Positions 18,051-39,792 are shown, counted from the first letter of the stretch. The stretch: 64,000 nucleotides of DNA from Deltaproteobacteria bacterium (GCA_016792625.1 JAEUKK010000027.1:78424-142423), one strand, 5' to 3'. Made by a program: numbers and translations. The notes: generated by a model from the sequence alone, not told the origin.

Positions 18051-19412
18051 ATGTCCACCCCCCGCTCTCCCTCCCCCTGGCCCCGCGCGCACCGCGCCCT
18101 CCCCCTGCTGCTCGGCCTGCTGGGCTGCGGGGCCGAGGGTGAAAAAGACGTCAGCGGTGATGAAGACGAGCAGGTCGCCGATGGCGGCGGCGCCGCCGAC
18201 GGGGGCGCGCCGACCACCGACCTGACCTGGCACCAAGACATCGCGCCGATCTTCTCGCAGAGCTGCGAAGGTTGCCACGGCGCGACCGGGGGCGGCGGTG
18301 GGCTCGACCTGTCGACCCCCGAGCGGGCGGCCGAGTGGGCCTTGCCGATCGCCGCGGCGGTCGAGGCCCGGCGCATGCCCCCGTGGACGGCGGCCGACGA
18401 CTGCAACAGCTACCAAGGCGACTTCTCGCTGAGCGCCGAGGACCGGGCCAAGGTCGTCGAGTGGGCCCGGGCCGGCGCGCCGGCGGGCGACCCAGCGACC
18501 GCGGCCGCGCTGCCGCCGGCCTACACGCCCCCGGTGCTGGACCGGGTCGACCTGCAGCTTGAGCTGCCGGTCGAGTACACGCCTGATCCTGGCCAGCCCG
18601 ATGATTACCGCTGCTTCTTGGTGGATTGGCCCTGGGCCGAAGACGCCTGGGTGACCGGCACGCACATCCGGCCGACCAACGAGGCGATCGCCCACCACGT
18701 CATCACCTTCCTCATCCCGCCCGAAGATGTGGCCACCTACGAGGCCCTCGACGCCGCCGACGCGGCCCCCGGCTACCCCTGCTATGGCGGGCCGGGCGGC
18801 GACATCGACTCGCTGCAGACCATGCGCTGGCTGGGTGCCTGGGCGCCGGGCGGCGGCGCGGCGGTCTACCCCGAGGGCACCGGCCTGCGGGTGCGGCCGG
18901 GCAGCAAGCTCGTGCAGCAGATGCACTACAATACGCTGGGCGGGCCCGGCGCCGACCGCACCGTGATGGACTTGCGGGTCGAGACCACCCCCCAGGGCTG
19001 GGCCGACATCCAACCCTGGACGGATGTGCGCTGGGTCCTGGGCGTGGGCATGGACATCCCCGCCAACACCGAGGGGGTCAGCCACGAGTTCCGCTACCGT
19101 GCGGGCGCGGGCGATCGCTTCGCCTTCCACAACGCCGCGCTGCACATGCACACCATGGGCGTGAGCGCCAGCTTGCACGTCGAGCACGCTGATGGCAGCG
19201 AGACCTGCCTGCTGCGCGAAGACAGCTGGGACTTCAACTGGCAGCGCACCTACGCGCTGACCACGCCGGTCAACGTGACCCCGGGCGACGAGATCGTGCT
19301 GCGCTGCACCTGGGACAACGAGAGCGACCAAAACGCGGCCTGGGGCGAGGGCACCGGCGACGAGATGTGCCTCGCGACCACCTACATCACCGACAGCTGG
19401 CCCGAGGACTGA
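18051..19412 (+). CDS. Lipoprotein with a cytochrome c (CxxCH) motif fused to a copper type II ascorbate-dependent monooxygenase-like (PHM/DBH-like) domain
   Basis: Lipobox LLGLLGCGAEG. SCEGCHG carries CxxCH. PHM-like motifs are present in order: DDYRCFLVDWP ... AIAHHVITFLI (HH), LVQQMHYNTL (H), AFHNAALHMHTMGV (HxH), GTGDEMCLATTYI (Met ligand). Confidence 0.7.
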   Translation: MSTPRSPSPWPRAHRALPLLLGLLGCGAEGEKDVSGDEDEQVADGGGAADGGAPTTDLTWHQDIAPIFSQSCEGCHGATGGGGGLDLSTPERAAEWALPIAAAVEARRMPPWTAADDCNSYQGDFSLSAEDRAKVVEWARAGAPAGDPATAAALPPAYTPPVLDRVDLQLELPVEYTPDPGQPDDYRCFLVDWPWAEDAWVTGTHIRPTNEAIAHHVITFLIPPEDVATYEALDAADAAPGYPCYGGPGGDIDSLQTMRWLGAWAPGGGAAVYPEGTGLRVRPGSKLVQQMHYNTLGGPGADRTVMDLRVETTPQGWADIQPWTDVRWVLGVGMDIPANTEGVSHEFRYRAGAGDRFAFHNAALHMHTMGVSASLHVEHADGSETCLLREDSWDFNWQRTYALTTPVNVTPGDEIVLRCTWDNESDQNAAWGEGTGDEMCLATTYITDSWPED

Positions 19413-19650
19413 GCCGCGTGGGCGCGGTGCGGCCGGCCGGCGCGCTCCGGGTCTGCGTCTTCGGCCCACGTTCACAATCAGACGGTTCCAACCTGGGGAG
19501 CATGGCGCCTGCGGCCCCCCTCTGCGCTCGCCGGGGCCCCGGGCGGCGCTCCGCCTGCGGCGGGATCGCCGCCCGCCCGGCTCGGCCCCTGCGGGGCCGC
19601 GGCTGCGCCGCGCGCGCCGGTCGGCCGGGCGCGGAGGGCGCGGCGAGGGT

Positions 19651-22999: not shown

Positions 23000-24253
23000 G
23001 TGCTTAGCCTGTCCAGGGCCGACGCGCGCTCCGCTACACTCGCCGCGGAGGTGGGGATGGCGCGCGCGGTCTCGGGCATGGAGCGCCTCTGGTTGGCCGC
23101 GGGCCGGGTCGCGCCCCCCTTCGCGGTGCACGCGGTGGTCGAGCTGGACGCTGTCCCCGACGAGCGGGCGCTGGCTTTGGCCATCGGCGCCCTGCACGCC
23201 GCCTGGCCCGACCTGAGCCCCCGGCTCGCGGGGGTCTTGCGGGGCGCGCGCTGGGCGCCGGCGCCCGCGCCGCCCCTGGCCCTGTGCCCCGACCTGACCT
23301 GGGAGGATGGCGACATCAGCGCCGCGATCGCCGCTCTCGACGCGGCGGCCGCGCTCGACCCCGACGGCCCCAGCCTGCGCTGGCTGCTGGTCCCGGGGCC
23401 GCCGGCCCGGCTGGTGCTCTCGACCCTGCACGCGATCACCGATGGGCGCGGCGCCCTCACGATGTTGACCGCCCTCGCAGAGCTGCTGCGCGGGCAGGCG
23501 CCGCCGCCGCTGCCCAGCCAGCGGCACGAAGGCGACGAGGCCCTCGCCCGCGGCGGCCGGCCCGTGCCCCCGCCGCGGGCCGACGCCGCGGCGCCCTACG
23601 CCCCCGACGGAGATCCTGCTGATCGCGGGCGGCGCACCCTCCGCCGACGGGTCGCGCTCGCCCCGCGCGCCCCCCTGGCCCGCGCGCTGGCCGCGGCGGC
23701 GCGGGCCCGCCCGGGCGCGCGCCTGCGGGTGGACGTGCCGGTCGACCTGCGGCGCCCCGCGCTCGGCCCGCAGACCGGCAACCTCAGCGGCCTGCTGCGC
23801 GTCGAGCTGCCCGCAGAGGCGGGGGGCCCCGAGGGCGTGGCCGTCGTGGACGCCGCTCTGCGCGCGGCCATCGACGCCGGCGCCCACCTGCACACCACCG
23901 CCGAGGCCCAGCGCGTGCGCGCGTGGCCGCTGTGGCTGATCGCGGGCGAGGCGGAGCGCCGCGCCGCCGCCGAGCGCGCCCGCGGCGCTGTTCCGGTCTC
24001 GTTCACCTTTAGCAACTTAGGCCGGGTGCCCCTGCCTGCCCTGGATATGGGATCGGCGCGCTGTACGTCATTTTACCCGATTCCGCCCGCCGCGCCCGGC
24101 CTGCCCGCCCTCTGCACCCTGACCGGGGGTGACGATGGCGCGGGGCGCGTTCACCTTGAGCTGCTGGTCAGCGCGCCCGCCCGCTGGGCCAGCGCGCCCA
24201 CCCTGGCCGCTTGGGTCGAGGCGCTGGGCGCCGCGCTCGAGGCCCCGGTCTAA
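23000..24253 (+). CDS. Condensation-domain-like / WS-DGAT-like acyltransferase (HxxxDG motif)
   Basis: LVLSTLHAITDGRGALTML contains HxxxDG at the position expected for C-domain / wax-ester-synthase-like acyltransferases. About 417 aa, consistent with a standalone C-like fold. Confidence 0.5.
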   Translation: MLSLSRADARSATLAAEVGMARAVSGMERLWLAAGRVAPPFAVHAVVELDAVPDERALALAIGALHAAWPDLSPRLAGVLRGARWAPAPAPPLALCPDLTWEDGDISAAIAALDAAAALDPDGPSLRWLLVPGPPARLVLSTLHAITDGRGALTMLTALAELLRGQAPPPLPSQRHEGDEALARGGRPVPPPRADAAAPYAPDGDPADRGRRTLRRRVALAPRAPLARALAAAARARPGARLRVDVPVDLRRPALGPQTGNLSGLLRVELPAEAGGPEGVAVVDAALRAAIDAGAHLHTTAEAQRVRAWPLWLIAGEAERRAAAERARGAVPVSFTFSNLGRVPLPALDMGSARCTSFYPIPPAAPGLPALCTLTGGDDGAGRVHLELLVSAPARWASAPTLAAWVEALGAALEAPV

Positions 24254-24327
24254 GCGGCGCGCCGGGGGGCGTTGCGGGGGGGCGGCCAGCCCCCCCGCCC
24301 ATTGGACCGATCCCCTCTGCGGATTGC

Positions 24328-25161
24328 TCAGGGCTTGGGCGCGGAGAGCGAGTTGAGCTCGTCAAAGCCCGGCAGCGTCGAGAGGTCGGGCACCAGCACG
24401 ATCTCGATGCGGCGGTTGCGGGCCCGGGCGTCGACGTTGGTGTTGGGCACGGTGGGGCGGCTGTCGCCGAAGGCCGCGGCGCTCACGTTGCCTGGGGCCA
24501 TCCCGCCCTCGATCAGGGCCTTGAGCACGGTGATCGCGCGGGCGCTGCTCAGCTCCCAGTTGGAGGGGAAGGTCGCGCTTTTGATCGGCACGTCGTCGGT
24601 GTGGCCCTCGACCTGAAAGCGCCGGTCGCCCAGGGTGGCCAGGATGGCGCCGACCTCCATCACCGCCTGCTTCCCTTGGGGGGAGAGGGCCGCTTTGCCG
24701 CTGCCGAACAGGATGTCGGTGGCCATCTCGACCACGAGGCGCCCGTCGACCACCTTGACCCGCAGCTTGCCCGACTCGACCATGCCGGCGAAGCGGGCGA
24801 GAAGTGACTTGTACTCGGCGATCCGGTCGTCGGCCGCCTTCTTGCGCGCGGCCAGCTCGGCGAGGGCGCGGCTCATGTCCATCACCGAGTCGGTCAGCTG
24901 ACCCTTCTCGGACATCAGCCGGGCGACGTCTTCCCGCAGCTTGTCGGCCTCGGCGCCCAGCGTGGCCGTGCGGCGCTCTTCGGCGTCGAGTGAGGCCATC
25001 AGGGCCTCGGACTCGGCCTTGCGGTCGCGCAGCGCCTCGCGGGTCTTGTCGAGGACAGCGGCCTGCTCGTTGTACTTGCGCTTGCTAACGCAGCCGGTGC
25101 CCAGGGCGAGGGCCAGGGCCACCAGCAGCAGCGCACGGGGAGCGGAGGAGAGGAGGGGCAT
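24328..25161 (-). CDS. OmpA/MotB-family peptidoglycan-binding lipoprotein with a coiled-coil N-region
   Basis: Lipobox ALALGTGCVS. Coiled coil of about 120 aa. C-terminal OmpA domain FQVEGHTDDVPI ... NWELSSARA ... NRRIEIVL. Confidence 0.8.
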   Translation of the reverse strand: MPLLSSAPRALLLVALALALGTGCVSKRKYNEQAAVLDKTREALRDRKAESEALMASLDAEERRTATLGAEADKLREDVARLMSEKGQLTDSVMDMSRALAELAARKKAADDRIAEYKSLLARFAGMVESGKLRVKVVDGRLVVEMATDILFGSGKAALSPQGKQAVMEVGAILATLGDRRFQVEGHTDDVPIKSATFPSNWELSSARAITVLKALIEGGMAPGNVSAAAFGDSRPTVPNTNVDARARNRRIEIVLVPDLSTLPGFDELNSLSAPKP

Positions 25162-25184
25162 CGAACACCCGTGGACAGAGAGGG

Positions 25185-28100
25185 TCAGGTGGAGGTGGGC
25201 CGCTCAGAGGAAGGCGGATCAAGGGGGAGCTGCACCGCGGCCGGGTCGACCTGCTCGCCGGTCGCCTGCCCGAGCTGGCTGATCGCCTTGGCGATCCCGC
25301 GTCGCAGCTCGTCGAGGAAGGCCGCCTGCTCACCCGGCGGCAGGCGCTGGCGCACCTGCTCGGTGACCAGCGCGGCGAGGGCCTGCATGACCGGCAAGGC
25401 GCCGCTGAGCACATACTCGCCGGCCCGCAGCTGGCGCTGGGCGCCAGCCTGCATGCGCCCATAGGCCACCAAGGCGCGCTGCACCTCGGCGAGGATGGCG
25501 TGCCGCATGACCATATCGGCCTCTGCCCCCACCTCGAGGTCGGGGATGAGCCAGGGCGTCGATATGGGGGTTGTGCTTGTGTTGGCGGCAGCGGGGGCGG
25601 AAGACGGCGTGGGTACAACGCCCCGCAGCGCCTCGGCCAGGGCCTGGGGCAGGGCCCGGGCCAGGGCGGCGGCCTCAGCGCGGGCGGCGTCGAGCGCGGC
25701 GGTGAGGGGGGCCTGGGCTGCGGGGGCGGCGGCCCGCAGCGCGCCCACCTCGGCGCGCAGGGCGTCGAGGGGCGGGGTCAGCGCGGCGCCTAACGCGACG
25801 GCGGCGCGGTCGGCCCCGGGCGCGCGCAGGGCCTCGTCGATGCGGTCGAGGCTAGCCCCGAGGCCGGTCAGGGTGCCGGTGACCCGGGCGACCGGGTCTT
25901 GGTCGCTGCCGCCCATCAGCCGCTGCCGGGCGAATTCTTTGCAGATGGCGGCCCAGCGCTCTTGTTGGGCCGGCGTGGCCCGCCCGCGCAGCACGGCGAG
26001 CTTGAGCAGGTTGCTCTCGGCGCCGGTGGTCAGGGTCTGGGATTCGCCGACGTAGTGGTCGTCGACGAGGCGCTCGACCTCGTCGGGGGTCATCGCGCTG
26101 GCGATCTTTTCGCTGAGCTTGGCCATGTTGCGGTAGCTGCCCTGCAGCTTGAACGGCGGCTCGGTGCGGAATTTGTCGTCGACCCCCGCGCTGCGGATGT
26201 ACTCGGCGTTGACCTTGAGCAGGGTCTCGCGCACCCGCTCCATGCGCAGGAGCACCGCGCCGATCTCTTCTTGTTCCGCAGCCGAGGTGTCGGCGCTGAG
26301 CTTGGTCTGGTCAATCTCAACGCCGTGGGCCCGGTCGAGCAAGAAGTAGAGGTCGGCGAGAGGCCGGGCGGCGAGGGGGGCCAGCACGGGGTTGCTGGTG
26401 AGGCAGTTCTCAATGTAGGACAGGCCGAAGAGGTCTTGTCGGCCGCCGAGGATGTCGCCGAGGTTGTAGGTGTCGGCCCGGTTGGCCAACATGTCGGGGA
26501 TCTGAAAGCGGGCCCCGGTCTCGGTGTAGGGGTTCCCGGCCATGACCACGCAGAACTTCTTGCCCTTGAGATCGTAGGTGCGGCTCTTGCCCTTCCAAAT
26601 TCCTTCGACCCGACGGGTGCCGTCACAGAGCGAGATGAACTTTTGCAGCAGCTCGGGGTTGGTGTGCTGGATATCGTCGAGGTAGAGCATCACGTTCTCG
26701 CCCATCTCAAAGGCGAGGTTGATCTTCTCGACCTCTTGGCGGGCGGTCGCGTCGGGCGCCTGCTCGGGGTCGAGGCTGGTCACCGCGTGCCCGATGCTCG
26801 GGCCGTTGACCTTCATGAAAACGAGCCCCAGCACGTTGGCCACGTACTCCATGAGCGTGGTCTTGCCGTAGCCCGGCGGCGAGATGAGCAGCAGCAGGCC
26901 CATGGTGTCGGTGCGCTTGCCCGCGCCGGCCGCGCCGAGCTGCTTGGCGAGGTTGTTGCCGATGAGCGGCAGATACACCTCGTTGATCAACCGGTTGCGC
27001 ACAAATGAGGTCATCGGCTTGGGCTTGAGCTCATCGAGGCGCAGGGCCTTGCGGGCGCGCTCGACCACCCCGTGGCGGGCGGCCCGCAGCGCGGCGAAGC
27101 CGGGCACCTGCACCGCGCAGAAGCGCTCGAGGCGCGGGCCCAGCTCGTCGGCCCGCAGGCGCAGCTTCCCGCCCTGCACCCGCGCATGTTGGCCGAGCAG
27201 GCCGCTGATCTCGAGCTCGAGCGCCACCGCGCTGGGCGCCCGGTCGAGGCTGCGGTCGGTGATCAGGGCCACCGCCGCCTCGCGGGCGGCGAAGCTGTGC
27301 TCGATGAGCTTGGGGTCGCCGCCATAGCGCACCAGCGCGTCGAGCCAGCTCTCGACCAGCCCGAGGCGCGCGCCGAGATCGGCGTCGAGCGCGCGCAGGT
27401 CCTCTTCGAGGGCGGCGCGTTGGCGGGCGGCGTCGAGGCGGGCCTGCAGGGCGCTGAGCAGGGCGCTGGCGGCGGCGCTCAGCACGAAGCGGGGGCGCTC
27501 GGCGGCCAGCTCTTCGGCGAGGTAGGCCGCGGCCTCGGGCACCACCTCGGTCACCCAGGGGGTGCTGGGCAGGCGGTCGCGCGCCCAGGGGCCGATCACC
27601 CCGGCGAGGGCGGCGGTCAGGGCCCCGCGCGCCGGCGCTTGGGGGAAGGCGGCGATCAAGCGGGCGGCGGCGACGGCCTGGCGGTGCAGGGCGGCGCGCT
27701 GCTCACGGTCGCTGAGCGTGGCCCACCACAGGGCGCCCAGCGCCCGCGCGCTGGCCGAAAACCGCAGCAGGCCCACCGATCGACGCAGCCCGAGCAGCTT
27801 CTCGAGGATGGCCGCCGCGTCGGCGTCATGCACCCCCCGCTCGTAGCCCTCGTCGTAGCGGGTCGCCGCGAAGGCCCGCACCCGCTCGAGCAGGCCGCCC
27901 TCGACGAGCAGGGCCTCTTCGAGCGCGGCGACGCTGAGGCCGCCCGTGCCCGCCTCGGCCGCCCGCAGCAGGGCGTGGGCGAGGAACTCGGCGCGGTAGA
28001 CCTCGGCGTCTTCGCTGGCCACCGCCATCGACCAAAATGGCCGCGTGGACAGCAGCTCGGGGTCGGTCACCTCTTCGTAGTAGCCGGTTCCCGTGAGGTG

Positions 28101-30788
28101 CAGGGCCATACCCTCGCCGCGGGGCAGCAGGGTCAGCTCGACCGCGGCCTTGTTCACCGCGAAGCGGTGCTGGCCGAACTTGATGAGCTCGGCGCCCTCG
28201 TCGAAGAGGTCGAGCTTGTCGCGAATGACCCGCAGGGCGTTGGCCCGCACGGCGAGCAGGCGGCCAGCGAGGTCTTCGGACTTGACGCTGTCGCCGAGGG
28301 CGGCGAGCTGCTCGCTGATCTGGCGGACCTTCTGCACCATCGGGTCGCTGGCATACCAGGCAGCCAGCTCACGTTCGGCGGCAAAACCGCGGGCCCGCCG
28401 GTTGAGCCCCTCGAGGATGCGCGCCGCGGCGCTGATCAGGGCCTCGACCCGGCGCTGGCGCTCCTCGGTGAGCTGCTGGCGGCGGGCCTCAAATGCGTCG
28501 CTGACCTCTTCTCGTTTGTTGGCGATGTCAGCCAGGAAGGTGTCGAACTCGCCGAAGCGCCCCTCGAGCTCTTCGAGCTGCACCATGAGGCGGCCGCGTT
28601 GGGCGTCGCAGGCCTCGGGGGTGTCGGAGAGGCTGAGCGCGCTGCTGACCCCCTGGGCCAACAGCTTGAACTGGGCGGAGAACTCGGCCTGGGCCTCGAC
28701 CCGCCCGAGCTCACGTTTGCGGTTGTCGAGCAGGGCCCGCACCCGGTTGAGCTGGGCGAAGACCTCCGAGATGCGCTCGAGGATGGCCGTGCGCTGCACC
28801 GGGTCGCCGACCTCGAGCCCGCCGACCACCTCGGTGAGCAGGTTGAGGCCCTGGGCGGTGCGGTCGACGTCGGTGGCCACCTCTGCGCCCTCGGCGGCGC
28901 GCTTGAGCTGGGGCAGGCGGGCCTCGACGGCGCGGATCTGGTCGGTGATCCCGCTCAGGGCGGCGGGCTGCTGCAAGAAGCTGACGACCCCCACCGAGAG
29001 CGCGCCCTGGGCGGCGATGGTGGCCGCTTCGAGGGCGTCGAGGGCGGCCCGGTCGACCAAGCGCAGCTCTTTGAGGGTGATGAGCTTGCCCCTGTGCTCT
29101 CGCAGGCGGGCCATTCCGTCCATGAACGCGGGCAGGTCGGCCATGACCTCGGCGCGGCAGTCGAGCAACAGGCGGTCTTGTTCGGCGGTCGCACCTTCGA
29201 CCGCCTCTTTGGCCCGCCGCTGCAGGGCCTGCAGCTTCTCGAACTCGTCGATGATCAGCTCGGCGTTGCGCCGGGCCTGCTCGAGCCCGCGGCGGAGCTG
29301 GCCGTCGACCACCGCGCCGAGCCAGTGGAAGTGATCGATGACCCGGGTGGTCGCGCGGACCAAGTCCTCAAAAACGGGGCGGGAGGGGCTGAGGTTGCCC
29401 AGCTGGCGCGCGATGGCCAGCACCTCGCTCAGGCCGCGGACCAGATCGGCGTTCCCAATGCGGCCCAGCGGGCCGGCAGGTGCGGGCGTGTTCGCGTGGT
29501 GCTCGTCGCTGGTGAAGGGGGTCCGCCAGATTTGGAGCGGGTGCACCCGCGTCGGCTCTTCGGACTCGGCGCGGAAGATGACCAGCCGCCCGTCATCAAA
29601 GAGGCTGTAGCCGTGGCCGCCGATGGGTGTGGCGACCTCTTGCCGGATCAGGTTGTAGGGCAGGAGGACATAGACCCCCGTCTCTTCCCGGTGGAAGACA
29701 TAGAGGACGTCTTCGCCGTTGGGCGCCCGCACCATGCGCTTGAAGATGAGGCCCTCGGGCCGCTCATCGAAGATCCGAGAGACCCCCGACCGCAGGTAAT
29801 ATCCCCCGGGGAAGATGATGCCGTGGTCCTCGGGCAGCTGCACGCAGGCCTGGCCGATCGCGTCAATGCGGCGGACCTCACGGTTGCGGGTGTTGAACAA
29901 GAGGGTGCGGGTCTGCTCTTCGCCGAAGGGGCGGATACTGAGCAGCACGATGTTCCCGACCAGCGCGTACTTGATCTGCGCGTCGTCGAGGCTCTGGTGG
30001 GGGTCGTTGACCGGCTCGGCGTAGATGCCCTTGCCGGTCTTCGTGTTGTTCTCGACCTTGATGGTCAGGTCGCCGCCGATGGTCTCGACGAAGACCTTGT
30101 CGGCGATGTTGACGTGGGGGTGGTCGCCGAGCTCGTGGTCTTCGCGGGTGGTCGTGACCCAGTCGAAGTCGTGGGGCGGCGGGAAGGTGTGGTCCCGCTC
30201 GCCGCGGTTGTCGATGTAGCGCGGGCGGACGCCGGGCAGCATCTCCCAGCGGAAGACGCGCAGGTCGTCGGCCCGCTCGCCGATGCGAAAGACCGCCAGC
30301 AGCTTGTTGTCGAGCTTGCGAAGGGTGACCACCCGCGCGTCGCGGTAGTATTGGTAGAGCTCTTTAAATTGCGTGACGAAGCTCGGGTCGCTCAGCAGGC
30401 CCTCTTCGTCCTCGGCGGCGCCCAGATCCCAGCCCTCGGGCCCCTCGACGATGCGGTGCAGGCTGAACACGTCGCTGATCTGCACCTCGCGCTTGAGCGC
30501 GAAGCGCACGTTGTAGGCCAGCAGCAGCTTGCCGTTGACGTTCACGATGTTGCGCGGCACACACTTGTGCTCGGTGCGCACGCGCTCGTTGCCGATGACC
30601 ACTAGCTCTTGCCCGCCGAAGGTCTCTTTGCGCTGGGTGTTGAGCCCGTCGGCGAGCTGCAGCAGGGTCCGGGCGTCCTCTTCGAGGCGGGCACGCAGCA
30701 GGTCGTAGTTGCCGCCCTCGAGCTTCGGGGCGCCGCCCTGGGGGGCGGCGGCGGGCGCGGGTGCAGGGGGCGCGGGATCGGTGGCCAT
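25185..30788 (-). CDS. Giant (1867 aa) coiled-coil protein with a single MoxR/AAA_5-like AAA+ ATPase module; function unknown
   Basis: Uninterrupted ORF from the ATG at 30788. Walker A GLLLLISPPGYGKTTLMEY (near 26850-26880 on the minus strand). Walker B VMLYLDDIQHTNPE. FCVVMAGNPYTETG is typical of AAA_5/MoxR. Beta-rich N-terminal domain of about 480 aa; long helical/coiled-coil regions either side of the ATPase. No transmembrane segment. Confidence 0.8.
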   Translation of the reverse strand: MATDPAPPAPAPAAAPQGGAPKLEGGNYDLLRARLEEDARTLLQLADGLNTQRKETFGGQELVVIGNERVRTEHKCVPRNIVNVNGKLLLAYNVRFALKREVQISDVFSLHRIVEGPEGWDLGAAEDEEGLLSDPSFVTQFKELYQYYRDARVVTLRKLDNKLLAVFRIGERADDLRVFRWEMLPGVRPRYIDNRGERDHTFPPPHDFDWVTTTREDHELGDHPHVNIADKVFVETIGGDLTIKVENNTKTGKGIYAEPVNDPHQSLDDAQIKYALVGNIVLLSIRPFGEEQTRTLLFNTRNREVRRIDAIGQACVQLPEDHGIIFPGGYYLRSGVSRIFDERPEGLIFKRMVRAPNGEDVLYVFHREETGVYVLLPYNLIRQEVATPIGGHGYSLFDDGRLVIFRAESEEPTRVHPLQIWRTPFTSDEHHANTPAPAGPLGRIGNADLVRGLSEVLAIARQLGNLSPSRPVFEDLVRATTRVIDHFHWLGAVVDGQLRRGLEQARRNAELIIDEFEKLQALQRRAKEAVEGATAEQDRLLLDCRAEVMADLPAFMDGMARLREHRGKLITLKELRLVDRAALDALEAATIAAQGALSVGVVSFLQQPAALSGITDQIRAVEARLPQLKRAAEGAEVATDVDRTAQGLNLLTEVVGGLEVGDPVQRTAILERISEVFAQLNRVRALLDNRKRELGRVEAQAEFSAQFKLLAQGVSSALSLSDTPEACDAQRGRLMVQLEELEGRFGEFDTFLADIANKREEVSDAFEARRQQLTEERQRRVEALISAAARILEGLNRRARGFAAERELAAWYASDPMVQKVRQISEQLAALGDSVKSEDLAGRLLAVRANALRVIRDKLDLFDEGAELIKFGQHRFAVNKAAVELTLLPRGEGMALHLTGTGYYEEVTDPELLSTRPFWSMAVASEDAEVYRAEFLAHALLRAAEAGTGGLSVAALEEALLVEGGLLERVRAFAATRYDEGYERGVHDADAAAILEKLLGLRRSVGLLRFSASARALGALWWATLSDREQRAALHRQAVAAARLIAAFPQAPARGALTAALAGVIGPWARDRLPSTPWVTEVVPEAAAYLAEELAAERPRFVLSAAASALLSALQARLDAARQRAALEEDLRALDADLGARLGLVESWLDALVRYGGDPKLIEHSFAAREAAVALITDRSLDRAPSAVALELEISGLLGQHARVQGGKLRLRADELGPRLERFCAVQVPGFAALRAARHGVVERARKALRLDELKPKPMTSFVRNRLINEVYLPLIGNNLAKQLGAAGAGKRTDTMGLLLLISPPGYGKTTLMEYVANVLGLVFMKVNGPSIGHAVTSLDPEQAPDATARQEVEKINLAFEMGENVMLYLDDIQHTNPELLQKFISLCDGTRRVEGIWKGKSRTYDLKGKKFCVVMAGNPYTETGARFQIPDMLANRADTYNLGDILGGRQDLFGLSYIENCLTSNPVLAPLAARPLADLYFLLDRAHGVEIDQTKLSADTSAAEQEEIGAVLLRMERVRETLLKVNAEYIRSAGVDDKFRTEPPFKLQGSYRNMAKLSEKIASAMTPDEVERLVDDHYVGESQTLTTGAESNLLKLAVLRGRATPAQQERWAAICKEFARQRLMGGSDQDPVARVTGTLTGLGASLDRIDEALRAPGADRAAVALGAALTPPLDALRAEVGALRAAAPAAQAPLTAALDAARAEAAALARALPQALAEALRGVVPTPSSAPAAANTSTTPISTPWLIPDLEVGAEADMVMRHAILAEVQRALVAYGRMQAGAQRQLRAGEYVLSGALPVMQALAALVTEQVRQRLPPGEQAAFLDELRRGIAKAISQLGQATGEQVDPAAVQLPLDPPSSERPTST

Positions 30789-30922
30789 GGCACGCTCAAA
30801 GGCACGGGGATGGGCGCCGGCTGGCGCCGTGGGGCGCGCGGCTGCGGGGGGTCAAGCCCCCGCACGCGGGTGCGGACGCCACGGTCCGGGGTGGTCCGGC
30901 CGGGTGGGCGCCCGCGCAGACC

Positions 30923-33079
30923 TCAGCGCTGCTCGCCGAGGCCCAGGGCCTTGGCTTCGGCGAGCAGGCCGGCCAGCTTCTCTTTGGCCGGGCCCTCGGC
31001 GCGGTCCATCATGCGGGCGATGACCGCGGCCAGGGTGCTCTGGGTGACGAGGCCGGTGAGGTTGGTCTCGGTGCCGCTGGTGGCCGCCTCGAGCACCTTT
31101 TGCGCCGAGCCATTGCCGTCGACCAGGCCGTCGAAGGCCGCGCCGAGGCCAGCGGCCTGGGTGAAGCGCTCGATGAACTGGCTCTCGCCGCCGATGATCT
31201 TGATGTCGGCGCTCTTGAATGCCTCGGCGAGGATGCGGGACTGGCTCTCGGCGATGGCCTTCTGGGCGTCGAGCTTGGCGATGGTGACCGCCTTGGCCTG
31301 CTCGAGGCGCAGGCGGAACTCCTCGTGGTCGCGCGCGCTGCCCTCCATCGCCTTCATCGCGCTCAGCTTCTCGGCGAGGCCGGCCGCCTCGGCCGACATC
31401 TTGCTGCGAATGACCGCCGCCTCGGCCTGGCCGGCCTTCTCGATCGCCACCGCCTCGGCCTCGCGCGCCTGGACCTCGGCGAGGCGCCGGGCCTTGAGCG
31501 CGTCGGCCTCGGCCACGCCGAGCTCGCGGGTGGCCTCGGCTTTGGACCGCCCCTCGGCCTGAATGAGGCCGATGTGCAGCTCTTTGACCTTGACGTCGGC
31601 CACGCCGACCTTCTCGTTGCCGTCGGCCTCGGCGGCCATGCGCTCGCGGGTGACCCGGGCTTGGGCCATCCCGAGCTTCTCGGTGGCGAGGGCCTCGGCC
31701 TCTTTCACCCGGGCGCTGGCCAGACCGGCGGCGGCCTCTTGGGCCTGGGTGCCTTCGGCGGCGCGGATCTTGGCTTGGGTCTCTTTCTCGGCTGCTTCAA
31801 GGCTGGCCTGCGCGGCCACGAGGCGCTCGCGGGCCTTGAACTCGGCGACCTTCTCTTGGGCCTCGGCGCTCTTGATGTCTTTGACCAACTTCTCTTGGGC
31901 CTCACCCTCGGCGAGGGTGACCTTGACGTCGCGGGTGCGGCCGGCCTCGGCCATGGCGCGCATGGTCTTGATGCGCTCCTCTTCTTCGGCCACGGTCTTG
32001 TCGACGACGATGCGGCCGCGGATCACGTCGGCGATGTTCTTCTTCTCGACCTCGAGCGCCTTCTCCTTCTCGATGCGCTGCAGCTCGACCGCGCGCTCCC
32101 GGGCCAAGATCTCCAGCTGGCGCTCCTTGGCCACCTGCTCGGTCTTGATCGCGACCACGCGCTCCTTGTCCTTTTGGGCGACCTCGACCTGCCGGTCCTT
32201 GTTGACGTTGCCCAGCGCGATCTCCTCGGCGGCCTTGATCCGGGCCAGCTCCGACTTGCGGTGCTCCTCGGCCTGGATCTTCTCGGCTTCGGCCGACTCA
32301 CGCGCCTTGACGCTGGCGATCTCGCGCTGCTGGCGGGCCTCGGCGTCGGCCCGGCGGCGGCCGAGCTCCATCACCGCTTCGTCGGCCTCGAGGTTCTGGC
32401 GGCCTAGCTCTTTGCGCTCGGCTTGGCGCAGGTCATTGGTCTTGACGTTCTGCCCCGCGGTGATCTCGGTGATCTTGCGGATGCCCGAGGCGTCGAGGAT
32501 GTTGTTCTTGTCGAGCTTGTCGAGCGGCGTCTGCTCGAGGTAGTCGATGGCCGCGTCGGTGAGGATGTAGCCCTCGAGGTCACGCCCGATGACGTCGATG
32601 ATCTGGTCCTTGAACACATCGCGCTGGGTGTAGAGCTCTTCGAAGTCGAGGCGTTTGCCCACGGTCTTGAGCGCCTCAGAGAATTTGGCCACAAACAGCT
32701 CTTCGAGGGTGTTCTGGTCGCTGGCCCGCGCGCAGCCGATGCCCTGGGCGACCTTGAGCACGTCCTCGGTGGTCTTGTTCACCTTCACGAAGAAGGTGAC
32801 CTTGATGTCGGCGCGGATGTTGTCTTTGCAGATCAGGCCCTCGTTCCCGCGGCGCTCGATCTCGATGGCCTTGACCGAGATGTTCATCACCTCCCACCGG
32901 TGGAAGATGGGGAGCACGACCCCGCCGGTGAAGGTGACCACGGGCTGGTCCTGCATCTTGTTGATGATGAGGGCAGAGCCTTGGTCGACCTTGCGGTAGC
33001 AGCTCGCGACGAAGGCGAGGATGCCGCCCCCGATCAGCAGCGCGAAGACGACGATGACGATGATTGCGGTGGTTCCCAT
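30923..33079 (-). CDS. Flotillin / SPFH (band 7) family protein, YqiK/FloT-like
   Basis: N-terminal TM anchor IIVIVVFALLIGGGILAFVA, then an SPFH domain, then a very long Glu/Ala/Lys-rich coiled coil (EA repeats) typical of flotillins. RBS GAGGAG upstream of the ATG. Confidence 0.85.
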   Translation of the reverse strand: MGTTAIIVIVVFALLIGGGILAFVASCYRKVDQGSALIINKMQDQPVVTFTGGVVLPIFHRWEVMNISVKAIEIERRGNEGLICKDNIRADIKVTFFVKVNKTTEDVLKVAQGIGCARASDQNTLEELFVAKFSEALKTVGKRLDFEELYTQRDVFKDQIIDVIGRDLEGYILTDAAIDYLEQTPLDKLDKNNILDASGIRKITEITAGQNVKTNDLRQAERKELGRQNLEADEAVMELGRRRADAEARQQREIASVKARESAEAEKIQAEEHRKSELARIKAAEEIALGNVNKDRQVEVAQKDKERVVAIKTEQVAKERQLEILARERAVELQRIEKEKALEVEKKNIADVIRGRIVVDKTVAEEEERIKTMRAMAEAGRTRDVKVTLAEGEAQEKLVKDIKSAEAQEKVAEFKARERLVAAQASLEAAEKETQAKIRAAEGTQAQEAAAGLASARVKEAEALATEKLGMAQARVTRERMAAEADGNEKVGVADVKVKELHIGLIQAEGRSKAEATRELGVAEADALKARRLAEVQAREAEAVAIEKAGQAEAAVIRSKMSAEAAGLAEKLSAMKAMEGSARDHEEFRLRLEQAKAVTIAKLDAQKAIAESQSRILAEAFKSADIKIIGGESQFIERFTQAAGLGAAFDGLVDGNGSAQKVLEAATSGTETNLTGLVTQSTLAAVIARMMDRAEGPAKEKLAGLLAEAKALGLGEQR

Positions 33080-33150
33080 GGCTCCTCAGGGGTACGGGGC
33101 GGTGATCGAGGCGAAGGAGAAAATAGGGGGAGGGTGGCTCGGCGCGTGAC

Positions 33151-33882
33151 TCAGCGCGTGGTCTGCGCCGGGGTGGCCCGTCGGGCGGAGGTGCGGGGCG
33201 CCGGCCCGCCCGGGTGGAGGGGCTCGATGACGAAGGCCTCGCGGGCGGGGTCGAAGTGCACGAGCAGCGCCTCATCACCCTTCTGCAGGCTGTTTTCATG
33301 ATCGCAGCGCACCTGAACCACCAGCAGGCTGCCCCCGTCGTCGATCTCGGCCTGGCCGAAGCGGCCGTCGACGCGCAGGGTCGAGAGGCGGCAGGCGCGC
33401 CCGATGAGCTCAGCGCGGCGGCGGGCGGGGCGCTCAGCGAAGACCGGGCCCAGCGGGCGGGCGGCGAGCGACCCGAGGACGACCCCGACCGCGAGGCTGC
33501 CCAGGCTCACCAGCCCGGCGGTGAGGCCCGCGGGCAGCGCGCCCGCCAACAGGGGGGCCCCCCAGGCCATGCCGCAGAAGCTGGCGATCCAGCCGAAGAA
33601 GATGACGAAGCTCAGCGCGACGGTGAGGGGGACCTGGCGCAGGCCCAGCACCTGCAGCAGCTTGGCGAGGCCGCTGATCCCCTCGACCGCCCCCTCGTGG
33701 CCCTGGGCGCCGTCGAGGTGAACATCGATGTCGACGTCAATGTCGCCGCTGCCGTCGATGTGCCAGATGTCGATGTCGAGGGCCCCGGCGATGACCAGCA
33801 GCCAGTAGAGGCCCACCACGAGCAGCGCCGCGGACCAGACCGCGGTGGGCAGGGCGAAGGCGACGTTGAGGAAGTCCATCAT
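33151..33882 (-). CDS. NfeD/YqiJ-like membrane protein (flotillin partner, C-terminal OB-fold)
   Basis: Several TM helices, then a C-terminal beta domain (RLSTLRVDGRFGQAEIDDGGSLLVVQVRCD ... GDEALLVHFDPAREAFVIEPL). Lies directly upstream of flotillin, as in yqiJ-yqiK / nfeD-floT operons. Confidence 0.6.
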   Translation of the reverse strand: MMDFLNVAFALPTAVWSAALLVVGLYWLLVIAGALDIDIWHIDGSGDIDVDIDVHLDGAQGHEGAVEGISGLAKLLQVLGLRQVPLTVALSFVIFFGWIASFCGMAWGAPLLAGALPAGLTAGLVSLGSLAVGVVLGSLAARPLGPVFAERPARRRAELIGRACRLSTLRVDGRFGQAEIDDGGSLLVVQVRCDHENSLQKGDEALLVHFDPAREAFVIEPLHPGGPAPRTSARRATPAQTTR

Positions 33883-33959
33883 CGCGGGCGGCGCCTGGGG
33901 AGCGGGGCGGGTGCGGGCGGAGCGGCCGCGGGGGCAGGGTATTGCCGCACGCGGGCCGT

Positions 33960-34472
33960 CTATTGCCTTGGGTTGGCGGGTGTTGTCGTCGGGCGGAGCT
34001 GTTCGAGCAGGCCCCGGCCCGCCCGCAGGCAGAGGTCGTGGACGAGCGCGAAGCCCTCCGGGCCACCGTAGTAGGGGTCGGGGACCTCAGCCCCCGGCGG
34101 CGAGAGGGGGTCGAAGCTGCGCAGCAGGGCGAGCCGCGCGCGGGGCTTGGCCGGCGCGCGGGCCCGCAGCGCCTCGAGGTTGTGCGCGTCGAGCGCGATG
34201 ATCCAGTCGAAGCGCTGAAAGTCATCGGGCCGCAGCCCCCGGGCGCGGTGGCGCAGGGCGAGCCCGCGGCGGGCCGCTTCGGCCGCGCTGCGGGGGTCGG
34301 GCGCCTCGCCGGCGTGCAGGTCGATGGTGCCCGCGCTGTCGATGTCGAAGCGCGACCCGAGCCCTTCCGCGGCGACCAGGTCGGCGAAGATGGCCTCTGC
34401 GACGGGGCTTCGGCAGATGTTGCCCATGCACACGAAGAGCACGCCCAGGCGCTCGCCCGCTCCGCTCGTCAT
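33960..34472 (-). CDS. Low-molecular-weight protein tyrosine phosphatase
   Basis: P-loop VLFVCMGNICRSPVAE (CX5R) and the DPYYG motif. The ORF 33960..34517 is trimmed to MTSGAGERLGVLFV. Confidence 0.8.
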   Translation of the reverse strand: MTSGAGERLGVLFVCMGNICRSPVAEAIFADLVAAEGLGSRFDIDSAGTIDLHAGEAPDPRSAAEAARRGLALRHRARGLRPDDFQRFDWIIALDAHNLEALRARAPAKPRARLALLRSFDPLSPPGAEVPDPYYGGPEGFALVHDLCLRAGRGLLEQLRPTTTPANPRQ

Positions 34473-34549
34473 CCGGCCTCCTCGGCGCCGACCGGGCGCC
34501 CCCCGGCGCAATAGCATGGGGCGCCCGCCCGCCGCCCGGAGCTGCGACC

Positions 34550-35338
34550 ATGGCCCCGTCCCCGCGCGCCCAGCGCCGGCGCATCGTCGGCTTCGCCGTG
34601 CACTTCCTGGTGTTCACCGCGCTGCTGCTGCTCTCGCGCGGGCGCATCCCCGGGCCTGCCGCCGCGGCCTGGTGGGGTCTGGGCCTGGGCATCCACGGCG
34701 TGGTCGCGCTGTTGCCCGTGATCCTGAGCCAGCTCAGCCTGCGCGCCGCGGCCGTGCCCGAGCCGCAGCCCTCCGGGCCGATCGTCCGGCCGGCCCGCGG
34801 GGTGGCCCGGGGCTTCTGGGCCGAGGCCGGCGTGCTCATCGACGCCTTGGAACAGCAGCGCCGCGACGGCGGCCTGCACCCTCGGCTCGACTTCGCCGGG
34901 CTGCGCGAGGCCGTGCTCGACCTGCACCACCGGGCCGACGGCCTCGCCGGCCTGGGCGACGAGGGCGACCTGCTGCAGCTCAGCGTGCAACAAGAAGAGG
35001 CCGCCGAGCGGGCCCGGGCCGCCTCTGACGAGACCAGCGCCGAAGCTTTTGAGCAAGAGGCGCTGGCGATCGCCCACCGTAAAAGCAGTCTCGAGGCGGC
35101 GATCCGCACGCGGGTCAGGCTGCAGGCCCGGCAGCGCACCCTGCTGCACCAGCTGCAGTCGCTGCGGGCCTCGGGCGCCCACGCCTTGGCGGGCGCGGCC
35201 CAGGGGGCGGAGGAGGAGCTCAACGCCGAGGCGGAGCAGCTGCTCGAGGAGCTTCAGGCGAACCGCGAGGTCGAAGAGGAGCTCGCCCGCGGCCGCCGGA
35301 GCGCCAGCCGGGCCCGCCGCGCGCCCGAGGGCAGCTGA
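34550..35338 (+). CDS. Hypothetical membrane protein with a C-terminal coiled coil
   Basis: Two N-terminal hydrophobic helices (IVGFAVHFLVFTALLLL; WWGLGLGIHGVVALLPVIL), then about 130 aa of predicted coiled coil. Confidence 0.45.
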   Translation: MAPSPRAQRRRIVGFAVHFLVFTALLLLSRGRIPGPAAAAWWGLGLGIHGVVALLPVILSQLSLRAAAVPEPQPSGPIVRPARGVARGFWAEAGVLIDALEQQRRDGGLHPRLDFAGLREAVLDLHHRADGLAGLGDEGDLLQLSVQQEEAAERARAASDETSAEAFEQEALAIAHRKSSLEAAIRTRVRLQARQRTLLHQLQSLRASGAHALAGAAQGAEEELNAEAEQLLEELQANREVEEELARGRRSASRARRAPEGS

Positions 35339-37726: not shown

Positions 37727-39676
37727 TCAGCGGCTGGGGATGACCGCGATGTCGGCGTCGTCGGGATCACCGCAGTCCGCGGTGTAGCCGTCGCCGTCGG
37801 TGTCGGTGCCCAGCGTCGGGCAGAAGCTCAGCACCCGACCCTCGAGGTCGTAGGGGTCGGTCGAGCGGAAGACGTCGCCGCTGGAGCCGCTGTAGATGTA
37901 GCCGAAGCGCTCCCACATCAGGCGCTGGCGGCCGGTGCCGAGGCCCAGCGCGCCGGTGTAGGGCTCGGCGGCCGACATGTCGGTCTCGCGGTCGGCGGTC
38001 GTACCCGCGCCGCAGCTCCAGCCGACCACCGCGTCGGTCGCGTAGGTGCCGCCGATGTCGTAGACCTCGTCGTGGCGGATCTCGAAGCTGCCGTCGATGA
38101 ACAGCAGGGCCGAGAAGGTGTTGGGGCTGTACAGGTCGGAGCTGTTCCAGAAGCTGGTGTTCACCCAGTAGATGCCCACCGCGTCGTCAAATTCGACCGC
38201 GTAGACCGCGCCCTGCTCTTCGGGGATCTCGGTCAGCTCGGCGGCCATGTCATCCCACAGCACGGCGATCATGGGGTTCTTCGCCGAGGTGCCCGTGGCC
38301 GAGCTCAACATGTCGTTCGACGAGGGGCTGAGGTCGTAGCTGCCCAGGCCGAAGTGCAGGCGGCCGTTGGTGTCGACCCGCACGCCGGTCTGGCTCGTGC
38401 CGCAGAAGGGGAAGGTGAGGGTGGGGAAGCTCACCGTCGTGATGCCGTCGTCGGTGTCGGTGAAGGTGACCTCGAGCGCGTCGGTGTCGGCCGCGTCGAC
38501 GAGGCCGTCGCAGTCGTTGTCGAGCGTGTCGGTGTCGGTCGACAGCTCGAGCGCGTAGGGGCGGATGGCCGCGTCGGTGTCGTCGCAGTCATCGCCGCCG
38601 TAGGCGCTCGCCGCGAAACCATCGACGTCCGCGTCGTAGTCATCGCCGCCCGCGCAGTCCTGGTCGAAGCCGTCGTACCAGAGCTCAGCGGCGCCGGGGT
38701 AGGTGGCCGCGTCGCTGTCATTGCAGTCAGTGCCGCTGTACTCATCGCTGTCGACGCCGTCGAGGTCGGCGTCGAAGTCGCTGGTGGTCGAGCAGTCCTG
38801 GTCGACGCCGTCGTACCAGATCTCGGTGGCCGCGGTGTTGATCGCGCTGTCGGTGTCGTTGCAGTCGGTGCCGCCGTAGGCGCTCGCGTCGAAGCTGTCG
38901 AGGTCGGCGTCATAGTCGCTGCCGCCGCTGCAGTCGTTGTCGGCGCCGTCGTACCAGGTCTCGGTGTTGCCCGGGTAGGCCGCCTCGTTCGTGTCGTCGC
39001 AGTCGGTGTTGTCGTCGACGTGCTCGGTGGGCTGGCTGCAGGCCACCGCGGGGGTGGCGGGGTCGCCGTAGCCGTCGCCGTCGGCGTCCCAGTACCAGGT
39101 AAACGCGTCGACGCTGTCGCTGCCGTCGATCACCGTGTCGCAGTTGTCGTCGATGCCGTTGCAGGACTCGTCGGCGTCGGGCGCGATGGCCGAGTTGGCG
39201 TCATCACAGTCACCGGCTTCGGCGGCGAGGCCGGCGGCGGCGCCGCAGGTGGTCACCGGCAGCGACTCGTCGCCGAAGCCGTCGCTGTCGGCGTCGGTGT
39301 AGTAGGTGAGCGTGCCGGTGACGCTGTCGTCCTCCATGTCGATGAGGCCGTCGCAGTCGTTGTCGATGCCGTCGCAGGCCTCGGTCGCGCTGGGGTTGAC
39401 CGCGGGGTCGCTGTCATCGCAGTCCACGTCGGCGGTGGCGCCGTCTTCGTCGGCGTCGACCGGGCCGCCGTCGGTGCCATCGGCGCCGTCTGCGCCATCG
39501 GCGGTGCCGTCGTCTGCGGTGCCGTCATCAGCGGTGCCGTCGTCTGCGGTGCCGTCATCAGCGGTGCCGTCATCGGCGGCGCCGCCGCTGTCCTTGTCGC
39601 TGGTCGGTTCGCAGCCGGTCAGCAGGCCGCCCGCGAGGGCGAGGAGGAGGGAGGGGAACAGGCGCGACATGGTCAT
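37727..39676 (-). CDS. Lipoprotein with myxobacterial MopE-like 'putative metal-binding' Cys/Asp-rich repeats
   Basis: MTMSRLFPSLLLALAGGLLTGCEP lipobox. (GTADD)x5 low-complexity linker. At least 7 repeats of ...DADGDGYG ... DCDD ... NP ... E.C(D/N)G.D(N/Q)DC(D/S)G.D. The C-terminal 280 aa form a different, unknown domain. The ORF 37727..40060 is trimmed to the ATG at 39676. Confidence 0.7.
   Translation of the reverse strand: MTMSRLFPSLLLALAGGLLTGCEPTSDKDSGGAADDGTADDGTADDGTADDGTADDGTADGADGADGTDGGPVDADEDGATADVDCDDSDPAVNPSATEACDGIDNDCDGLIDMEDDSVTGTLTYYTDADSDGFGDESLPVTTCGAAAGLAAEAGDCDDANSAIAPDADESCNGIDDNCDTVIDGSDSVDAFTWYWDADGDGYGDPATPAVACSQPTEHVDDNTDCDDTNEAAYPGNTETWYDGADNDCSGGSDYDADLDSFDASAYGGTDCNDTDSAINTAATEIWYDGVDQDCSTTSDFDADLDGVDSDEYSGTDCNDSDAATYPGAAELWYDGFDQDCAGGDDYDADVDGFAASAYGGDDCDDTDAAIRPYALELSTDTDTLDNDCDGLVDAADTDALEVTFTDTDDGITTVSFPTLTFPFCGTSQTGVRVDTNGRLHFGLGSYDLSPSSNDMLSSATGTSAKNPMIAVLWDDMAAELTEIPEEQGAVYAVEFDDAVGIYWVNTSFWNSSDLYSPNTFSALLFIDGSFEIRHDEVYDIGGTYATDAVVGWSCGAGTTADRETDMSAAEPYTGALGLGTGRQRLMWERFGYIYSGSSGDVFRSTDPYDLEGRVLSFCPTLGTDTDGDGYTADCGDPDDADIAVIPSR
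39485..39590. repeat. Tandem 15-bp repeat (gcggtgccgtc[a/g]tc[a/t]) encoding (A/T)DDGT x5-6 within the MopE-like lipoprotein gene
   Basis: Direct head-to-tail near-identical 15-nt units visible at 39490-39590. Confidence 0.6.
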
Positions 39677-39792
39677 GGAGTGCTCCGGCGGCAGTGGGGA
39701 CGCGCGGGCAACCCGCGCGAGCAGCGGCGCGATACCACGCCGATGCGCCACTGTCCTGACACCAGCCTCACATCCGGCGCCCCGGAGCCTCC

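Follow-up and report, generated by a model that had tools for sequence, protein, structure and literature searches.

Bacteria are believed to rely on flotillins and PspA-type polymers for organising and repairing their membranes, and we know of no ATP-driven factor that assembles or dismantles bacterial assemblies of either kind. In HflK/C-FtsH an SPFH cage encloses an AAA+ protease, and Vps4 acts on ESCRT-III/PspA-type polymers. According to a 2025 review, a Vps4-like regulator of PspA polymers appears to be absent in bacteria. The closest described system comes from the comparative genomics of Ravi et al. 2024 (mSystems, PMC11237479), who defined an operon type composed of a band-7/flotillin protein, a YqiJ/YuaF protein with three transmembrane (TM) segments and a β-propeller AAA+ ATPase. 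The band-7 protein of these operons has a TM segment followed by the band-7 (SPFH) domain, a coiled coil and a flotillin region. The operon is often joined to YjfI–PspA(YjfJ), the CesT/Tir-PspA dyad, and sometimes to a PLD hydrolase, and 'abbreviated' forms lack the dyad. That paper gives the system a single paragraph, leaves the ATPase nameless, reports no experiments and reaches the same functional inference as ours. Here we analyse a locus of this kind from a Deltaproteobacteria bacterium (GCA_016792625.1 JAEUKK010000027.1:78424-142423), a stretch of 64,000 nt that we call the window, in which a giant AAA+ ATPase of 1867 residues is encoded within a block of five genes at 24328-34472.

The window shares with the described operon type a flotillin-family protein with the TM, SPFH and coiled-coil architecture, a protein that we assign with moderate confidence to the YqiJ/YuaF type with three TM segments, and a β-propeller AAA+ ATPase. 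The full form carries the YjfI–PspA dyad, whereas the window has neither the dyad nor a PLD gene and so corresponds to the abbreviated form. Two of its genes, an OmpA-like lipoprotein gene downstream and a low-molecular-weight protein tyrosine phosphatase (LMW-PTP) gene upstream, are not mentioned in that paper. An earlier note on this DNA had held the composition to be unlike any characterised flotillin operon known; the core had in fact already been described by Ravi et al. 2024 (PMC11237479).

A three-gene core conserved across phyla

Reading the window for open reading frames (ORFs) gives five co-directional genes on the minus strand, which end at 34472, or at 34517 if the longest ORF of the last gene is taken:

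24328-25161, minus strand, OmpA-like lipoprotein (277 aa)
25185-30788, minus strand, giant AAA+ ATPase (1867 aa)
30923-33079, minus strand, predicted flotillin-family SPFH protein (718 aa)
33151-33882, minus strand, probable YqiJ/NfeD-like membrane protein (243 aa)
33960-34472 (longest ORF to 34517), minus strand, LMW-PTP (170 aa; 185 aa for the longest ORF)

We surveyed the neighbourhood of the giant gene with one genome per species. Loci were located with two AAA+ peptide patterns, a sample that leaves out very divergent relatives. At least 559 were confirmed, and in the 80 best-scoring of these all ORFs were searched with the five window proteins. The loci belong to Myxococcota, Actinomycetota (including Nonomuraea, Micromonospora and Streptomyces), Gammaproteobacteria (including Pseudomonas, Stenotrophomonas, Xanthomonas and Xenorhabdus), Planctomycetota and Zetaproteobacteria. 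Among the 73 loci with at least 3.3 kb of upstream sequence, a flotillin-like gene lies directly upstream of the giant in 70, and a YqiJ-like gene lies directly upstream of the flotillin-like gene as well in 68. The remaining five loci still have the core genes nearby, split by insertions or a frameshift. In addition, the pairwise-identity matrices of the three core proteins correlate with one another (r = 0.86-0.94, with r = 0.94 for the giant and the flotillin-like protein), which fits inheritance as a unit and which shared phylogeny alone would also give. The conserved unit is therefore three genes, in the order YqiJ-like, flotillin-like, giant, and the module appears, from these comparisons, to be widespread and vertically coherent. 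Giant orthologues thus do not occur mostly without a flotillin/NfeD-like pair, and the earlier claim that this pair is extended here by a giant ATPase holds across at least five phyla.

Two of the interrupted loci illustrate such insertions. Two tandem PDDEXK_2 transposase-like genes lie between the flotillin-like gene and the giant at L079:7988-9888, and surface-protein genes are inserted in the cassette at L014:4056-9351, including one for a protein with an OmpA domain and thrombospondin repeats that is unrelated to the OmpA-like protein of the window.

Within the window, the five genes lie 23, 134, 71 and 77 bp apart, counted from the OmpA end to the phosphatase end, and both their common orientation and these gaps agree with the earlier description. 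GC content at third codon positions (GC3) is 0.90-0.95 and at second positions (GC2) 0.40-0.57 in all five ORFs, in a genome and window of ~74% GC; because these values match the coding signature of a high-GC genome, we take the five ORFs to be genuinely coding rather than products of chance. The ATG of the phosphatase gene at 34472 has a Shine-Dalgarno sequence, GAGGAGG, just 5′ of it and is the more plausible start by sequence than that of the longest ORF at 34517, in line with the start chosen before. The block is bordered by a divergent plus-strand ORF (34550-35338) and by a convergent plus-strand ORF (23000-24253), the latter with good coding statistics and no Pfam match. Scanning the block for promoters and terminators gave no promoter-like site, and terminator-like sites were no commoner than in shuffled sequence; the scan is therefore uninformative on operon structure and co-transcription.

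GC content dips to 0.68-0.73 at 24-34 kb, against ~0.78 in both flanks. A horizontally acquired island, which such a dip might suggest, is rejected, as GC3 remains 0.90-0.95. The dip arises because the block encodes Ala/Glu/Lys-rich coiled coils, and not because the DNA is foreign.

Architecture of the giant ATPase and its membrane partners

Pfam matches cover three parts of the giant: DUF3686 (9e-195, residues 43-488), DUF7902 (2e-25, residues 610-693) and AAA (5e-7, residues 1299-1419). We built two AlphaFold2 models, of residues 1-1200 and of residues 1101-1867, each from a 41-sequence alignment, and these divide the protein as follows:

29325-30662, minus strand, DUF3686 and predicted β-propeller, residues 43-488 (AlphaFold2 model and Foldseek)
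27189-29324, minus strand, predicted helical/coiled-coil part, small β domain and helical domain, residues 489-1200 (AlphaFold2 model and alignments)
26532-26894, minus strand, AAA+ core, residues 1299-1419 (Pfam AAA)

The model of residues 1-1200 has a mean predicted local distance difference test score (pLDDT) of 83, rising to ~85-90 in the propeller region. It begins with a long helix (residues 27-57) and a β-rich domain (strands within 63-422), continues with very long helices between 446 and 861, and ends in a small β domain (869-906) and a helical domain (932-1176). Foldseek aligns the β-rich domain with the propellers of prolyl oligopeptidase, CyRPA, the clathrin terminal domain and paraoxonase in the PDB (E 6e-5 to 2.5e-3), and the N-terminal ~360 residues are thus predicted to form a β-propeller. 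The earlier description of the protein as a coiled-coil giant was right about the helices and the AAA+ module and incomplete in that it missed this propeller. A protocoatomer-like coat, considered because of the matches to the clathrin terminal domain and linker, was rejected; TM-scores were ~0.1-0.2, and the helices form long rods and not a solenoid.

The model of residues 1101-1867 (mean pLDDT 73) contains a single AAA+ module, for which Foldseek returns RuvB, NorQ, MCM, CbbQ, ClpA/B and dynein at ~1e-5. The module is divergent and, by small score margins, leans to the MoxR/NorQ/midasin side; a DnaA-like clade was also considered and is not supported. Walker A (SPPGYGKTT, nt 26856-26882) and Walker B (MLYLDDIQH, nt 26664-26690) are invariant in the family alignments. 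The helical domain between the long helices and the AAA+ module contains a further motif, GYERGVHDAD (residues 981-990, nt 27819-27848), in which G981, Y982, R984, G985, H987, D988 and D990 are invariant in both the 12- and the 41-sequence alignments; nearby, R977 is invariant among the 12 sequences and nearly so among the 41. GYERGVHDAD corresponds to no catalytic or binding motif that we know of. By hydropathy the giant has no TM segment, and Pfam detects no DNA-binding or protease domain in it. A sequence search of solved structures with the giant gave matches at the level of Walker A only.

More than 6472 homologues of the giant are found at E <= 1e-10, most of them either without a name or labelled 'DNA repair ATPase' or 'AAA family ATPase'. 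A set of 1.84 billion representatives at 50% identity contains just 719 that match its N-terminal 500 residues, and those that appear complete are 1550-2036 aa long. Because these matches are few and of similar full length, the propeller domain occurs essentially only in one architecture. Median pairwise identity across phyla is 50% over ~1650 aligned residues, from which the giant family appears to evolve slowly. A phage genome collection contained no match to the giant, and plasmid copies are rare (13 records, mostly megaplasmids or mislabelled chromosomes).

Both partner proteins belong to divergent subfamilies that the standard models mostly miss. The 718-aa protein opens with a TM helix (residues 1-29) and an SPFH region; a long helical stretch rich in Ala, Glu and Lys follows, and the C-terminal region is conserved. 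Pfam finds no match in it even at E <= 1, with Band_7 (PF01145) and Flotillin (PF15975) both missed, and the NCBIfam FloT match is sub-threshold (1.3e-5, 24.4 bits against a cutoff of 700). Band_7 is matched in 2 of 21 members of its family. Despite this, a profile of the 21 members aligns with E. coli YqiK in hhalign at 99.9% probability (E 2.9e-32) over 409 columns that span the TM, SPFH and helical regions, and this profile-profile match places the protein, as a predicted member, in a divergent subfamily of the flotillin family.

The 243-aa protein has three TM-like segments by hydropathy (~4-40, 78-108 and 116-148), an Asp-rich loop at ~36-60 and a C-terminal β-rich domain. It has no Pfam match; within its family, YqiJ_N is found in 4 of 21 members and NfeD (PF01957) in one of 21, at 0.029. 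The family profile aligns with E. coli YqiJ at 85.9% (E 5e-6), and the alignment reaches the C-terminal β-rich part. These matches support, with moderate confidence, a divergent YqiJ/YuaF-type protein with three TM segments. The labels given before, flotillin and NfeD/YqiJ-like, are hence right at the level of profiles, while the window proteins themselves escape Pfam. Solved structures searched with either family profile yielded nothing meaningful.

Variable neighbours of the core

The OmpA-like protein starts with a signal peptide in which LGTGC resembles a lipobox, followed by a coiled coil at ~30-135 and an OmpA_C domain at 151-250 (nt 24412-24711; Pfam OmpA, PF00691, 1e-17), and by hydropathy it is hydrophobic only at its N terminus. 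Its OmpA domain contains NWELSSARA, which can be read as the peptidoglycan-binding motif NxxLSxxRA. MotB/MotD-like matches in NCBIfam cover the OmpA part only and lie far below the curated cutoffs, and the PADLOC ZorB3 match (3e-28) is likewise confined to the OmpA part.

The gene is kept next to the giant in the close relatives of the window. At locus L083, whose giant is 94% identical, the same OmpA gene follows 23 bp downstream of the giant. At L089 an OmpA homologue of 81% identity follows after 15 bp, GreA stands upstream in place of the phosphatase, and DNA synteny with the window (77% identical) covers exactly 24326-33883, from the start of the YqiJ-like gene to the OmpA stop codon, with the phosphatase gene outside. 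Beyond these relatives the link is absent. None of the 68 surveyed loci with at least 2.5 kb of downstream sequence has an OmpA-like gene within 2.5 kb downstream of the giant, and the OmpA homologues of 59% and 56% identity lie away from cassettes of this type. The OmpA gene is thus a real but narrow, clade-specific accessory and no part of the general core, and its proposed role as a partner of the system does not generalise. At L007 another OmpA-domain gene lies 5 kb downstream of the cassette. On the L083 contig, which is 91% identical to the window, DNA similarity extends precisely up to the stop codon of the OmpA gene. A GH1-annotated gene comes next (L083:6547-7780), and the change marks a rearrangement breakpoint at the block end between the two sequences.

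The phosphatase matches LMWPc (PF01451) over its full length (2.4e-35) and has the CX5R(S) motif as CMGNICRS. It had been counted as part of the operon. Since no homologue is found within ±10 kb at any of the 80 loci and synteny with L089 ends at 33883, the gene does not belong to the unit; it is a bystander, co-directional and 77 bp upstream.

At other loci the core keeps different company. DUF2170 (YjfI) and PspA/IM30 (YjfJ type) genes precede the cassette in 16 mostly gammaproteobacterial loci, so that the full form of Ravi et al. 2024 is recovered independently here. The slot downstream of the giant varies by lineage and is filled by a PLD/HKD hydrolase, a rhomboid protease, an M50B peptidase, a TelA-like protein (a weak match), a rhodanese, an α/β hydrolase or nothing conserved; about half of the loci, including most of the actinomycete ones, have no conserved co-directional downstream gene. 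Where present, these genes often have a start codon that overlaps the stop codon of the giant. The TelA-like gene (~250 aa) overlaps the giant stop codon in seven Xanthomonadales loci (L052, L060, L061, L069, L071, L075 and L076, at ~15260-16080 in each), and its sole match, TelA (toxic anion resistance), is sub-threshold (E 6e-6, 26 bits against a cutoff of 30).

Among the plasmid records is pQBR103, a 425-kb environmental megaplasmid of Pseudomonas fluorescens SBW25 (L088, NC_009444.1 86452-103317). Here the cassette directly follows yjfK/L/M/C-like genes (DUF2491, DUF350, DUF1190 and the glutathionylspermidine synthase family), and an MvaT/MvaU-type gene lies just downstream of it.

About 3 kb from the block, the window also encodes a 777-aa protein with six MopE-type Cu-binding repeats (37727-40060, minus strand). 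Two relatives likewise encode MopE-repeat proteins no more than a few kb from the cassette or the OmpA homologue (L082:15588-17507 and 18781-19542; L091:16106-18433), a proximity that probably reflects their abundance in these genomes.

Proposed function of the module and comparison with known systems

Our best reading is a three-gene membrane-stress or remodelling module in which the ATPase would act on flotillin, and possibly PspA, assemblies; we hold its prospects to be about evenly balanced. We favour it because of the conserved gene order, the homology of the two partners to YqiK and YqiJ, and a topology of no TM segment in the giant, one in the flotillin-like and three in the YqiJ-like protein. 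It is favoured also because of the propeller, helices and AAA+ module of the models, the invariant Walker motifs, the correlated identity matrices, the company of PspA/YjfI and of PLD, rhomboid, M50B, TelA-like and rhodanese genes, and the description by Ravi et al. 2024. The flotillin-like protein and its YqiJ-like partner would assemble into an SPFH oligomer, as a cage or a patch, on the cytoplasmic side of the inner membrane. The giant would oligomerise through its AAA+ module, dock through the propeller and long-helix part, and spend ATP on building, dismantling or remodelling this scaffold or its clients, which might be PspA-type polymers with genes at other sites. Its role would be comparable to that of FtsH in HflK/C cages or of Vps4 on ESCRT-III, within an envelope or membrane-stress response. 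The OmpA-like lipoprotein, predicted to be periplasmic, fills the variable slot in a narrow Myxococcota-like clade and may couple the response to the wall locally.

Several observations weigh against this reading. The contact between giant and flotillin-like protein is one that we infer from gene order alone. At phmmer E <= 0.01 the 64-kb window contains no PspA homologue, and phmmer finds none of YjfI, PLD, rhomboid, MutH or the TelA-like protein there either. The AAA+ clade assignment depends on small score margins, and Walker B has DD instead of DE. Literature searches returned no experimental work on the giant, and nothing at all on it beyond the paragraph of Ravi et al. 2024. Finally, relatives whose giants are ~60% identical have a MutH-family gene (PF02976) in the OmpA position, overlapping or abutting the giant stop codon, and in one case a DUF790 gene behind it:

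L081:13718-14401, MutH-family gene
L082:13673-14353, MutH-family gene
L084:13604-14293, MutH-family gene
L086:8938-9606, MutH-family gene
L084:14287-15543, DUF790 gene after the MutH-family gene, seen once only

A pure membrane-remodelling model leaves these translationally coupled neighbours unexplained, and it is mainly because of the MutH-family genes that defence and DNA-related readings stay alive.

Defence systems are commonly built from a large STAND- or AAA-type ATPase and variable effectors. In an anti-phage or conflict system, the giant together with the two membrane proteins would detect infection or a disturbed membrane and switch on the variable downstream effector. The downstream slot is enriched in families of nucleases, hydrolases and proteases, and stop and start codons frequently overlap there; this would suit such a role, as would sporadic megaplasmid copies such as pQBR103. 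However, PADLOC-DB 2.0 matches no system to the giant, the flotillin-like or the YqiJ-like protein (for the giant the sole match, to the IetA P-loop at 0.0058, is sub-threshold, and the flotillin-like protein, the YqiJ-like protein and the phosphatase give none), the phage genomes searched have no match, and no defence genes were found in the window flanks. Conservation is also unusually high for a defence system, both in the median identity of the giants and in the small N-terminal family of 719 representatives, about half of the loci lack a conserved co-directional downstream gene, and the recurrent partners are PspA/YjfI stress genes. We therefore consider a defence function unlikely. A DNA repair ATPase acting with nucleases on DNA, as the NCBI and Pfam names imply, is less likely still. 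Besides the name, it could call on the MutH-family and DUF790 neighbours in the sister clade and on RuvB and MCM among the structural neighbours of the AAA+ core; yet the likeness to RuvB and MCM is generic to AAA+ proteins and no better than that to NorQ, CbbQ, ClpB and p97, Pfam finds no DNA-binding domain, the literature searched offers no experimental support for the name, and both invariable partners are predicted integral membrane proteins.

The earlier note had proposed that all five genes form an envelope-spanning machine, in which a flotillin scaffold, a motor-like ATPase and an OmpA wall anchor are physically connected, and the phosphatase could then serve as regulator. The short gap between giant and OmpA gene, the link kept in L083 and L089, synteny that ends at the OmpA stop codon and the NxxLSxxRA motif are all compatible with this, and OmpA-domain genes also occur within the cassette of L014 and 5 kb downstream of that in L007. 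But the survey found neither OmpA (0/68 loci) nor the phosphatase (0/80) in the general neighbourhood, MutH takes the same slot in giants that are still ~60% identical, the more distant OmpA homologues are unlinked, and the phosphatase falls outside the syntenic block. Instead of a MotB-type TM helix, the N terminus of the OmpA protein shows a signal or lipobox sequence, no MotA/ZorA partner is present, and occasional adjacency is to be expected, since OmpA-domain proteins are very common in Myxococcota. No result gives a trans-envelope link, so that the motor-like, envelope-spanning connection was speculation and is unsupported as a general system; we rate the five-gene machine as improbable, somewhat more so than a defence function.

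Returning to membrane remodelling, a bolder form of it can be drawn by analogy. The DUF3686 giant might be the ATP-driven remodeller so far missing in bacteria for flotillin and/or (ESCRT-III-like) PspA membrane assemblies, a Vps4 or FtsH-in-HflK/C analogue with a MoxR-like core, its propeller and long helices docked on the SPFH scaffold and, in the clade of the window, wired to the wall by the OmpA lipoprotein. We think this combination doubtful, if less so than any of the alternatives above. The giant is an obvious candidate for such a role, because it is strongly conserved, has a single architecture, keeps a near-constant flotillin/YqiJ pair and is frequently a neighbour of PspA. The cassette is present in tractable organisms, among them Myxococcus, Corallococcus, Stenotrophomonas, Proteus, Streptomyces and P. 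fluorescens SBW25 with pQBR103. Thousands of sequences have inherited the name 'DNA repair ATPase', apparently without support. Its correction would be of practical value.

MoxR-type AAA+ proteins (NorQ, CbbQ, RavA) have ~300 residues and are usually paired with a VWA-domain protein, whereas the giant has 1867 residues and none of the five genes has a VWA match in Pfam. Like MotB-, ZorB- and Pal-type anchors, the 277-aa protein has an entire OmpA_C domain that includes the motif for peptidoglycan binding, and over this domain it matches the MotB, MotD and ZorB3 models best; it differs from MotB and ZorB in its N terminus, which lacks the MotB-type TM helix with its conserved Asp, and Pfam and PADLOC find no MotA/ZorA/TolQ-type partner among the five genes. 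The E. coli yqiJ-yqiK and B. subtilis yuaF-floT pairs have the same order as the window, with the NfeD-like gene for a protein with three TM segments preceding the flotillin gene, and are homologous at profile level. They have no giant ATPase, and the flotillin-like protein of the window is ~165 residues longer than YqiK. Measured against the Pfam Band_7, Flotillin, NfeD and YqiJ models, the pair in the window is a divergent subfamily that is mostly missed.

With HflK/C-FtsH and Vps4 the module would share a logic, by analogy only, in which an AAA+ machine acts on an oligomeric membrane scaffold or its clients, and the likeness to the ESCRT-III/Vps4 setting extends to the many genomes in which the giant cassette is encoded beside a PspA/IM30 gene. 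Unlike FtsH and Vps4, the giant has neither a protease domain nor a TM anchor, its AAA+ core is nearer, by small margins, to the MoxR/NorQ/midasin type, and its propeller and helical N-terminal part have no counterpart in HflK/C-FtsH or Vps4. The locus is thus an instance of a kind already described computationally, to which the OmpA-type accessory gene of one small clade is a modest addition.

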